A stretch of 64,000 nt of DNA from Pristiophorus japonicus (Eukaryota): contig NC_091996.1 in NCBI RefSeq assembly GCF_044704955.1, positions 2,418,001 to 2,482,000 on the forward strand. Reading direction: 5' to 3'. Within the stretch, counting starts at the first letter, position 1. Each line of letters starts with the position of its first letter. A model generated the notes under the pieces. That model saw nothing but the letters and a program-made list of their open reading frames with translations, did not search any database and was not told where the DNA came from. This document shows, one piece after another, positions 25,301-28,090 of the stretch. Position numbers and translations under genes: made by a program.

Positions 25301-28090
25301 CCTGCTCTTTCCTCAGTCCAGCAAATGTTTCCTTCTCAAGTATTTATCAAGAATATGAATCTGAAGACTGGATCCCCAGTGAGCTGATTAACATACAAGG
25401 CAAGAGTCACATTTGGCCAGGCACCATGACAGTCAAACACAAGCCTGACTCACACCTCAATCGTGTTCGCTGTAGTCTGTCAGACAACTTGTATTTATAT
25501 AGCGGTGAAATGTCCCAGGGCTCTTCACAGGAGTATTATGATAACAAATTTGACACCGAGCCGCACAAGTAGAAATTGGGGCAGTGACCACACGGGGGGT
25601 GGCGTCGCAGGATCGGGGCATCCCGGAGCGCATCAGCGATCTTGGTGGTTGAATGCTTGTCATCCGTTGACATCAGATAGCAAATATTCTGTTCACATCA
25701 TCTGCAGACTCCGGAACCTCAAACCAGGTCAGTTTTAAGGAGTGCCTTCGAGGAGGAAAGAGAGGCGGAGGGGTTTATGGAGGGAGTTCCAGAGCTTGGG
25801 GCCCAGACAACAGAAGGCACGGCCACCGATGGTGGAGCGATTATAATCGGATCCTCAAGAGGGCAGAATTAGAGGAGCGCAGACATCTTAGGGGGGTTGT
25901 GGAGCTGGAGGAGATTACAGAGATAGGGAGGGGCGAGGGCCATGGAGGGATTTGAAAACATCAATGAGACTTTTGAAATCGAGGCTCCTGAACTCACCGA
26001 TCCCAAAGTTCTTGGGCCTCTTCTCGAACAGAGGGTTCACGACCTTCTTCACCTCATGTTTACGTACCACGGAAGGGGCTGGAGCCACCTTCTTCCCCTT
26101 GGCTTTCTTCCCTTTGGGCTGAAGGCGGCAGAAATCAGGGAGTTAATGAGGGCACATCACAGCTCGCCATCACCCAACCCGCACTGAGAAAAACACAACC
26201 CCGGACTCGGCTCCCAGCAGGTGATGCGCACTAACTGTGCAGCAAGGACACCAGTGCCCAATTCACTTCGACTGAGAGAAAGACATTTATATAGCACCAA
26301 CAGGGTGCCCCCAAAAGAACTTCACAGCCCACTTACACACAGCAAGACACCCACTAATAGCAATGACCAGTTGATTGTTTGAGATAGTGATTGAAGTATA
26401 AATATTGGCCAGGACACCAGGGAGAATTCAATTCTGGGGAATTTTGGCTATGAGGAAAGATTGGATAGGCTGGGGTTGTTTCCCTTGGAGCAGAGGGGAG
26501 ACCTGATTGAGGTGTATAAAATTGAGGGGCCTAGATAGAGTGGATAGGAAGGACCTGTTTCTCTGAACAGAGGGGTCAACAACCATGGATTTAACGTGGC
26601 TTCCTACTGACCACATCCAGCTGCATATTATCACCTGTCTCCATCCGCAACTCTGCAGAGAGAATAAACAGCACAGAAACAGGTCCTTCATTTGGCCCAG
26701 CTGGTCTGTACAGTAAGGTTTATGCTCAACACATCTGCTGAAACACTCACCCATGCATTTATGTCCAAATTTTCCATTTAGGCTGCACAGCCGGCCACCT
26801 TTTCAATGGAAAAAAACAGCGTGTATGCAACACCTTGAATGGGTTACGCAGGAAAAAAATGGGAACATTGTCCCAGGCTCTCCTGTTGAGCCTCCCATCT
26901 TCCTTAAACTTGAGCTCCTCCAAAACCTCTGCTGCCCCGTGTCCTAACTCGCACCAAGTCTTGCTCACCCAATACACCCCAATGGCAATGCCTCCATTTT
27001 AAAATTCCAGGAATTGCAATAGAATGTAAAATGTAATAGAAATTTCATTCCGAAGAACGGAAGGAAGCCATTCGGCCCATCGTGTCCGTGCCGGCCGACC
27101 AAGAGCTACCCAGCTCTGGGTCCGTAGCCCTGCGGGTTACGGCACTTCAGGAGCACATCCAGGTACTGTTTAAATGTGGTGAGGGTTTCTGTCTCTACCA
27201 CCCTTTCAGGCCGTGAGTTCCAGACCCCCGCCACCCTCTGGGTGAAGACATTCCCCTCTGAACCTCCCCGCCAATTACTTTAAATCCATGACCCCTGGTT
27301 GCTGACCCCCTCCGTTGAGAAACAGGTCCTTCCTGTCCACTCTATCCAGGCCCCTCCAGACCTCCCCTCCCAGGAAAACAACCCCAGCCTATCCAATCTT
27401 TCCTCAAAGCCAAAATTCCCCGGTCCCGGCAACATCCTGGTCGCCCCCCTGCACCCTCTCCAGTGCGATCACATCCTCCCTGTAATGTGACACCTACACG
27501 CAGTACTCCAGCTGTGGCCTCACCCAGTGCTTTATACACTTCCAGCCTACCCCCCCCCGCTCCTGTAGTCCATGCCCCGGCCAATAAAGGCCGGTACTCC
27601 GCTCACCCCCTGGTCCACCCGGCCTGCCACCGTCAGGGACACTCCTGTGGCGTGTTTCACCGGGTTAAAGGCGCTATATAAATGCAAGGTGTTGGGGCGT
27701 GACCCCGCGACCTCTGACCCCGCGGCCTCCCGGGTGAGGAGCTGCCCGATCCCGGGGTCCCGCTGGAAGAGAGGCCGGGGGAACGGGAGCCGGGAGCCCC
27801 CCCTCCCCCCGGGAGCCCCCCTCCCCCTCCCCCCGGGGCCCGGGAGCCCCCTTCCCTCCCTCTCCCCCCCCCCCGGGGCCCTGCGGCTGTCGCGGTGACG
27901 GATCCCCAGCGATGGCGGGTTGTGCCGCATCCCTCAATCCCGGGAGCCCGGCTCCCCCCCAATCCCGGCGGGAAGGTGCGGCGGGTGGCCGGCGGGTGGC
28001 GGGCGGGGAGCTGGCGGGGCGGCTGGGCGGCGGGTGGAGGAGGATGGCGGCGGATGGCGATGCCGGGCCCGGGCCTCACTCACTCACCAT
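19261..28090 (-). CDS. RPL7A: 60S ribosomal protein L7a (eL8, SURF3), complete gene span, 266 aa
   Basis: Coding exons of 3+121+150+141+80+131+70+105 = 801 nt, all [28 protein letters not shown]. Confidence 0.98.
19370..19530 (-). mobile_element. Internally deleted tRNA-head SINE abutting the RPL7A exon 8 acceptor
   Basis: Minus strand: gggttcaagttccactccagag head and ggcgctatataaatgcaagtctttct tail. Confidence 0.7.
19536..19584 (-). pseudogene. Degenerate duplicate of the 5' part of RPL7A exon 7 (pseudo-exon)
   Basis: Reads [13 protein letters not shown] versus [14 protein letters not shown]; acceptor aaag|T replaced by ctgg|T. Confidence 0.85.
19639..19710 (-). ncRNA. SNORD36: SNORD36 (U36) box C/D snoRNA, RPL7A intron 7
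   Basis: Identical to the intron 6 copy. Confidence 0.9.
20275..20344 (-). CDS. RPL7A: RPL7A exon 7 ([23 protein letters not shown])
   Basis: ccaaag acceptor, gtatgt donor; 70 bp. Confidence 0.96.
20431..20502 (-). ncRNA. SNORD36: SNORD36 (U36) box C/D snoRNA, RPL7A intron 6
   Basis: ctgcgATGATGtacaatGAATTTCTTCAcCTGA..tGAGCTTTTTAACcCTGAgcag; extended external stem; about 86 nt upstream of the exon 7 acceptor. Confidence 0.92.
20935..21431. repeat. 36-bp minisatellite starting at the RPL7A exon 6 donor
   Basis: Minus-strand unit gtaccctgcctgtaatctcagcgccagggggagggg. Confidence 0.95.
21436..21566 (-). CDS. RPL7A: RPL7A exon 6 ([44 protein letters not shown])
   Basis: cctcag acceptor, gtgagt donor; 131 bp. 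Confidence 0.97.
22229..22306 (-). ncRNA. SNORD36: SNORD36 (U36) box C/D snoRNA, RPL7A intron 5
   Basis: ttgcaATGATGtttatGAATTTCTTCAaCTGA..cGAGCTTTTTAACcCTGAgcaa, with terminal stem. Confidence 0.92.
22488..22567 (-). CDS. RPL7A: RPL7A exon 5 ([27 protein letters not shown])
   Basis: (CT)n-ccag acceptor, gtaagg donor; 80 bp. Confidence 0.97.
22985..23375 (+). mobile_element. tRNA-head SINE fragment interrupted by the SNORD24 block (about 23077-23321)
   Basis: ggctcagtgg..ggctgacactccagtg | cagtaactgag..ctgcactgttggaggtgctgtccttcagatgagac matches other SINE copies (15205-16010, 41655-42495, 44790-45090). Confidence 0.7.
23145..23222 (-). ncRNA. SNORD24: SNORD24 (U24) box C/D snoRNA, RPL7A intron 4
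   Basis: Body identical to the other two copies. Confidence 0.92.
23500..23640 (-). CDS. RPL7A: RPL7A exon 4 ([47 protein letters not shown])
   Basis: ctgcag acceptor, gtgtgt donor; 141 bp. Confidence 0.97.
23718..23795 (-). ncRNA. SNORD24: SNORD24 (U24) box C/D snoRNA, RPL7A intron 3
   Basis: Body identical to the intron 2 copy; 3' end about 77 nt upstream of the exon 4 acceptor. Confidence 0.93.
24083..24232 (-). CDS. RPL7A: RPL7A exon 3 ([50 protein letters not shown])
   Basis: ccgcag acceptor, gtgagt donor; 150 bp. Confidence 0.97.
25482..25985 (-). mobile_element. L2-type LINE 3' fragment interrupted by the SNORD24 block (25591-25725)
   Basis: Aligns on both sides with the uninterrupted copies at about 2900-3080 and 21640-21790. 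Confidence 0.75.
25629..25706 (-). ncRNA. SNORD24: SNORD24 (U24) box C/D snoRNA, RPL7A intron 2
   Basis: tgcagATGATGtgaacaGAATATTTGCTAtCTGA..aACCACCAAGATCgCTGAtgc: C, D' and D boxes plus both 28S antisense elements of U24. Confidence 0.93.
25998..26118 (-). CDS. RPL7A: RPL7A exon 2 ([40 protein letters not shown])
   Basis: cttcag acceptor, gtgagt donor; 121 bp. Confidence 0.97.
28088..28090 (-). CDS. RPL7A: RPL7A exon 1 coding part (ATG only)
   Basis: Minus strand reads ctctctctctctctgcccgccgccattATG|gtgagt. Confidence 0.9.

Follow-up and report, generated by a model that had tools for sequence, protein, structure and literature searches.

The window analyzed here, a 64,000-nucleotide stretch of Pristiophorus japonicus DNA, carries the RPL7A gene together with the features listed in Table 1. 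The Pfam domain Ribosomal_L7Ae was matched by exons 5 and 6 of the gene in a profile scan, and six RNAs in the whole window reached the Rfam gathering score, namely SNORD24 (U24) in introns 2, 3 and 4 and SNORD36 (U36) in introns 5, 6 and 7. The 78-nt cores of the three U24 copies are letter-identical. The initial annotation had reported an intact U24 in RPL7A intron 2, and this was borne out: the exon model places intron 2 at 24233-25997, and the copy scored 66.2 bits against the Rfam SNORD24 model (RF00069, gathering score 41) with the full model (1-76) aligned, boxes C, D', C' and D and both antisense elements present, and guides that agree with the consensus. No second, decayed U24 was found in intron 2 by a covariance search (eight matches at E ≤ 10, one of which was SNORD24), and metagenome contigs searched for exact occurrences of a U24 core motif gave no matches.

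Table 1. Features of the RPL7A region, in positions of the window
Feature	Position	Strand	Description	Basis
RPL7A host gene	19261..28090	minus	8 coding exons, GT-AG introns, intact 266-aa ORF	Exon model and translation
Intron-7 duplicate of the intron-6 U36	19536..19744	minus	Runs through the 3' end of intron 6 into exon 7 (48 nt)	
SNORD36, intron 6 copy	20430..20502	minus		Rfam
SNORD36, intron 5 copy	22228..22306	minus		Rfam
tRNA-head SINE, 5' of the intron-4 block	22979..23076	plus	80/101 identities with the ~15200 copy	
Intron-4 block with U24	23077..23338	minus	262 bp	
SNORD24/U24, intron 4 copy	23145..23222	minus	Inside the 262-bp block	Rfam
Same tRNA-head SINE, 3' of the intron-4 block	23339..23378	plus	30/39 identical (~42075), 30/37 (~40065)	
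SNORD24/U24, intron 3 copy	23718..23795	minus	77 nt to the 3' splice site	Rfam and exon model
LINE, gene-3' half	25482..25590	minus	Hairpin right arm, end of ORF2, 3' UTR, 3' terminus	
Inserted block, intron 2	25591..25725	minus	128-135 bp depending on the parse; U24, 16-nt 5' flank, 23-nt 3' flank, 15-nt tail	
SNORD24/U24, intron 2 copy	25629..25706	minus	1396 nt to the 3' splice site	Rfam and exon model
TCAA	25719..25722	plus	Candidate 4-nt microhomology, present in intact LINEs at the same register and in both donor flanks	
LINE, gene-5' half	25726..25985	minus	Decayed ORF2 C-terminus	Repeat comparison, paralog peptide

The U24 copy in intron 2 sits between two stretches of a repeat. The left stretch had been described as stopping at 25590 and the right one as restarting at 25726, with a block of 135 bp (25591-25725) between them, and these coordinates proved correct. 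Other copies of the repeat in the window were matched in collinear order, four by the left half and five by the right half. The segment missing in intron 2 is retained by four of the five other copies, and the copy at 43k has its own deletion of ~40 nt there. With respect to order and subfamily, on which the initial annotation had staked its reading, the two halves were collinear and of the same subfamily in a panel of only five other copies. Specifically, private states were shared with the copy at 37k in 7 of 23 cases for the gene-5' half, as against 8 of 69 for the other four copies (Fisher p = 0.041), and in 11 of 23 cases as against 6 of 41 for the gene-3' half (Fisher p = 0.005). When only ungapped, unanimous columns were counted, the corresponding values were 5/16 versus 2/41 and 4/11 versus 3/19. 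These comparisons support the view that both halves belong to one collinear element of one subfamily, in which case the position of the intron-2 U24 cannot predate the LINE insertion. A separate TPRT insertion would bring its own 3' terminus, and the gene-5' half is without one; the 5' truncation of this half lies ~12 nt past the intron 2 donor site.

The peptide of the 43k paralog matched 1815 proteins at E ≤ 0.001, with homology to the C-termini of APE/RT proteins. Among the 11 long matches that were scanned out of 150 listed, RVT_1 was found in 8 and Exo_endo_phos in 2, and 1 was a WD40 protein. The matches to the C-termini of RT proteins indicate that the repeat is a LINE fragment that spans the end of ORF2 and the 3' UTR. 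A direct Pfam scan of three LINE peptides matched none of them, and a word-index protein search with the LINE peptides gave 53 candidates, none of which was significant. The element is a putative L2, a label that follows from a resemblance of its C-terminal motif to that group; the fragments contain no RT domain. L2 elements and L2-tailed SINEs are described from cartilaginous fish (PMC5499810, PMC13343379).

At the intron-2 insert, neither a poly(A) or A-rich tail nor a TSD longer than 4 nt was found, and ACCA stands at both junctions (25587-25590 and 25723-25726), as had been claimed initially. The junctions can be parsed in several ways. The original parse, in which 15 LINE nt are exchanged for 135 nt, is tenable. 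A tighter one takes TCAA as microhomology, whereby 9 LINE nt are exchanged for 128 nt with an adjacent G-to-CC change; a third reads ACCA as a 4-nt duplication following an earlier 16-nt deletion, and a further one has the hairpin arm as the source of a short filler. Common to every parse are the missing poly(A), a TSD of at most 4 nt, and 16 nt of donor-like, unprocessed 5' flank before the Rfam start of the snoRNA. The TCAA edge coincides with the point at which introns 3 and 4 cease to be nearly identical, a boundary that could have been set by conversion or selection. Intact LINE copies are predicted to form a 7-bp hairpin at the junction site (z-scores of -3.4, -3.2 and -1.8 in all three copies folded), and in the intron-2 LINE this hairpin has lost its loop and some of one arm. 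The site itself appears to be deletion-prone, in that the 43k copy was independently deleted over it.

The block is identical to intron 4 at 114 of 117 positions and to intron 3 at 113 of 117, and it carries three substitutions and one gap private to itself. Its last 15 nt matched neither intron above shuffles (p = 0.64 and 0.14). The initial description of the flanks as resembling the intron 3 copy is not supported by these figures, and neither is intron 3 as the donor. Introns 3 and 4 are identical at 124 of 125 positions within the block and at 73 of 93 directly upstream, a difference that points to gene conversion or strong selection. The copies look homogenized, so that introns 3 and 4 cannot be told apart as donors, and the identity of the U24 cores gives no date for the event. 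In the 3' flank of the block, 4 of 24 positions are unlike both donors; in the LINE half, 24 of 200 depart from the five-copy majority. These two figures are no evidence that the insert is younger than the LINE. Of the initial claim that the snoRNA is younger than the LINE, the part that stands is that it is not older than the LINE insertion, the halves being one element; strictly younger it need not be, since a double template switch during LINE retrotransposition would make the two the same age.

The intron-4 copy offers a second case of the same kind. Region 23114-23340 aligns to intron 3 at 86%, and the surrounding SINE has 262 bp in place of 15 nt that are present in the intact copy at 41673, although the right part of this SINE is only ~40 nt long and without a SINE tail, in a region that is a variable-number minisatellite unit. 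SINE and U24 have opposite orientations in intron 4, and RT switching between their RNAs is thereby excluded for this copy. Since only the intron-4 copy is nested, the direction of copying was from intron 3 to intron 4. No repeat was detectable around the intron 3 U24 by comparison within the window, and this copy is likely the oldest of the three. Note that an extension of the intron-4 block to the intron 3 branch point and the start of exon 4 was also considered and rejected, the match being not above shuffles (p = 0.26). Two of the three identical U24 copies are thus likely nested in older retroposon fragments, probably having been pasted there from a neighboring intron by break repair. A further block, in intron 7, duplicates the U36 of intron 6, which is likely its donor. 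Exon 7 contributes 48 nt to this block (85% identity), and the acceptor AG is lost; since intron and exon sequence are contiguous in it, the block was templated by DNA or by unspliced RNA.

Our preferred reading, to which we assign a probability of about 0.65, is that the intron-2 block would be a break-repair templated insertion from a neighboring intron into a pre-existing LINE. A break would have occurred at the 7-bp hairpin of the resident LINE, and one broken end would have primed on a paralogous flank 1.9-2.5 kb away, after which ~130 nt would have been copied and the end rejoined. The template may have been sister DNA or the nascent unspliced transcript, which are indistinguishable here. 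The copy may owe its survival to having brought along the complete external stem, on which processing at a distance from the 3' splice site depends, and gene conversion and selection would afterwards have held the 78-nt cores identical. Class 2 templated sequence insertions, as described by Onozawa and Aplan (PMC5110952), lack a TSD and poly(A), show a microdeletion and microhomology, and leave the donor intact; distant donors and evidence of an RNA template are also described there. The copies in RPL7A resemble them in these respects, with no TSD, no poly(A) and a target microdeletion in both cases (the LINE lacks 9-15 nt and the SINE 15 nt), as well as an intact donor and, in one parse of the intron-2 junction, a candidate microhomology. 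They differ in that the putative donors lie 0.6-2.5 kb off in the same gene and in that the product resembles a functional gene. Precedents in the same gene are the intron-4 block in an antisense SINE and the intron-7 U36 block over an intron-exon boundary. The proposal of a templated copy-paste from a neighboring intron, made in the initial annotation, keeps its core, given the lack of retroposition marks and an intron-4 copy with the same signature. It is likely that the intron-2 position of U24 was re-acquired and not inherited in place from an ancestor common with tetrapods, and under either break repair or template switching the match to the human intron-2 position would be convergent.

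The template-switch alternative, which we consider unlikely, holds that the RT of a retrotransposing LINE copied the 3' end of the element as far as the hairpin, paused there, switched to a U24 precursor of the nascent RPL7A transcript and went back to LINE RNA via the 4-nt microhomology, LINE and snoRNA being equal in age. It would account for the single orientation of LINE and U24 in intron 2, for switch points that bracket the hairpin, for the 4-nt microhomology at the return junction and for a block 5' end located at the base of the external stem as predicted by folding, and double template jumps by LINE RT are on record (PMC2104539). However, it fails for the intron-4 copy, whose SINE is antisense, and could apply to intron 2 only; moreover, no TSD was seen by eye around the whole LINE fragment, although this element is old, and the tripartite chimeras on record in that source are rare and join different RNAs. 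The LINE chimera described there comprises three transcripts joined inside a 14-bp TSD (PMC2104539). The intron-2 copy, but not the intron-4 copy, is like it in being an RNA copy between retroelement sequences in one orientation, and is unlike it in that one and the same LINE continues in register beyond the insert, with an antisense arrangement in the sister case.

That an ancestral intron-2 U24 stayed in place or moved within intron 2, either between two same-subfamily LINEs that inserted on its two sides and were trimmed by deletions into apparent collinearity or from an old donor since lost, seems rather improbable. This account would need two insertions and two deletions ending 9-15 nt apart in LINE coordinates, and it sits poorly with the lack of a decayed U24 in intron 2 and with an intron 3 copy that lies at the canonical distance of 77 nt and outside any repeat detectable in the window. 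In its favor, human U24 lies in RPL7A intron 2 (PMC3412847), the table of another study places chicken U24 in 'intron 1' and U36 in 'introns 3,4' (PMC2653536), where the RPL7A intron numbers probably run one lower, and the 43k copy marks the LINE site as deletion-prone.

A third alternative, which we regard as very unlikely, is that a U24 precursor was retroposed in the ordinary, endonuclease-primed way into a LINE already short of 16 nt; ACCA would then be a 4-nt TSD, and the tail would have decayed. ACCA does flank both junctions, and snoRNA retrocopies within repeats are on record in a figure legend (PMC1687206, Fig. 3B). Typical snoRNA retroposons, however, begin at the mature 5' end, carry an A-rich tail and are flanked by a TSD of 7-19 bp, and a minority without a TSD and with a small deletion is ascribed to DNA-break repair (Weber 2006, PMC1687206). 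The RPL7A copies are like snoRNA retroposons of types 1-3 in that these may land within repeats, and unlike the typical ones in all three hallmarks: no A-rich tail is present, 16 nt of 5' flank are unprocessed, and no TSD approaches the 7-19 bp of known cases. The copies also remain in the parental gene, so that retroposition would have had to land in the donor's own gene, and TCAA in the LINE register would have to be chance. Finally, an assembly artefact fusing the LINE with a U24 repeat is hardly credible: three near-identical 118-bp blocks lie inside 2.6 kb, but the block has differences private against both other copies and so is not a collapsed copy, and words sampled from 22400-26200 had shares of 0.74-0.86 in four runs of one sample, which may be the assembly source, and of 0.21-0.60 in three other samples. 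The 12 runs in the SRA index were seven from one organism and five from another (shares of 0.05-0.06 in the latter).

Processing was considered from position and folding. Distances to the acceptor are 77 nt for the intron 3 copy, 85 nt for the intron 6 copy and 272-1396 nt for the derived copies. Copies near 75 nt are described as undergoing splicing-dependent processing, and distal copies as requiring extended terminal stems (PMC4150776). An extended stem was predicted by folding for all three U24 copies. With short flanks, the external stem of intron 2 had -20.4 versus -17.3 kcal/mol, a value that 4.2% of 5000 controls with random changes also attained. When wide flanks were folded, intron 2 equaled intron 3 (-28.1 kcal/mol) and was weaker than intron 4 (-33.5 kcal/mol). 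A reinforced stem in intron 2 was rejected as a weak and post hoc candidate whose advantage vanishes with wide flanks, and the z-scores of whole-region folds were ~0. A constrained fold predicts that the U24 stem is closed by pairing between five LINE bases to its left and five to its right, which may be due to chance.

Cis-duplication is described as the main route by which box C/D snoRNA families grow (PMC8178906, PMC2653536, PMC3412847), its mechanism being given as 'likely through recombination' (PMC8178906) or as 'still enigmatic' (PMC2653536). The RPL7A set fits this picture in having extra box C/D copies in neighboring introns of one host gene. It departs from existing accounts in that resident repeats serve as empty-site references and that the insertion came with a 9-15 nt target deletion and not as an exon-plus-intron tandem. 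Our literature search, in which older and subscription papers were thinly covered, returned no report on shark RPL7A snoRNAs or on repeat-nested junctions of cis-duplicates. Cis-duplication and TSD-less snoRNA insertions are already known; what is new is the junction-level cases, including the repeat-nested copy in intron 4. Repeats that bracket a snoRNA copy keep the empty site and make its junctions readable, a rare junction-level view of snoRNA spread, and repeat-rich genomes would permit a genome-wide test of repair-type insertion versus retroposition. Positional conservation serves to infer snoRNA ancestry (PMC2817437), and ongoing mobility into orthologous introns has been argued (PMC3511168). 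The present locus warns that the same snoRNA in the same intron need not mean positional orthology, as assumed in comparative snoRNA work.

A broader view, which we regard as doubtful, is that host genes with high transcription supply their own introns with snoRNA genes by RNA-templated repair in cis at fragile hairpins of intronic retroposons, the nascent pre-mRNA or a stem-bounded pre-snoRNA serving as the template that patches hairpin breaks. If it were true, such seeding would have occurred at least twice, and possibly three times, in RPL7A; the tetrapod-like intron-2 U24 would have arisen convergently, and the arms of the LINE hairpin would have been co-opted to close its processing stem.

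The U36 copy in intron 7 may represent a third nested case. A candidate collinear repeat around its block (match at ~54835) consisted of a poly-C run only and was discarded. Separately, the intron-7 block was observed to adjoin a SINE head whose first bases match poorly.

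The U24 (SNORD24) tracts in RPL7A introns 3 and 4 (23687-23811 and 23114-23238, respectively) were identical at 124 of 125 positions, whereas identity immediately upstream was 73/93, and the edge was sharp. A like pattern was found in the U36 (SNORD36) pair of introns 6 and 7 (110/111 identical). These abruptly ending, near-identical tracts suggest, on sequence comparison, gene conversion between intronic paralogs of RPL7A.

The intron-7 U36 duplicate (19536-19744), which adjoins a SINE head, carries 48 nt of exon 7; its acceptor AG is gone, and the site now resembles a donor site (G|GTGAG). 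The intron-4 U24 block splits an antisense tRNA-head SINE, with 15 nt replaced (22979-23378).

The donor site of intron 2 lies ~12 nt from the 5' truncation point of its LINE (25985-25997). Intact LINE copies have a 7-bp hairpin at the U24 insertion site; in intron 2 the surviving arm is predicted to pair with five bases of the LINE gene-5' side (pairing regions 25585-25589 and 25726-25734), which would enclose the whole insert. The same hairpin is covered by a ~40-nt deletion in another LINE copy (~43441-43446).

Repeat arrays in the window
Feature	Origin	Location	Positions
Minisatellites	LINE ORF2 segments	adjoining LINE copies	36245-36800, 3170-3365, 21880-21960
33-nt arrays	SINE		~15310-15840, 28345-28790, ~39900-40070, ~41690-42090
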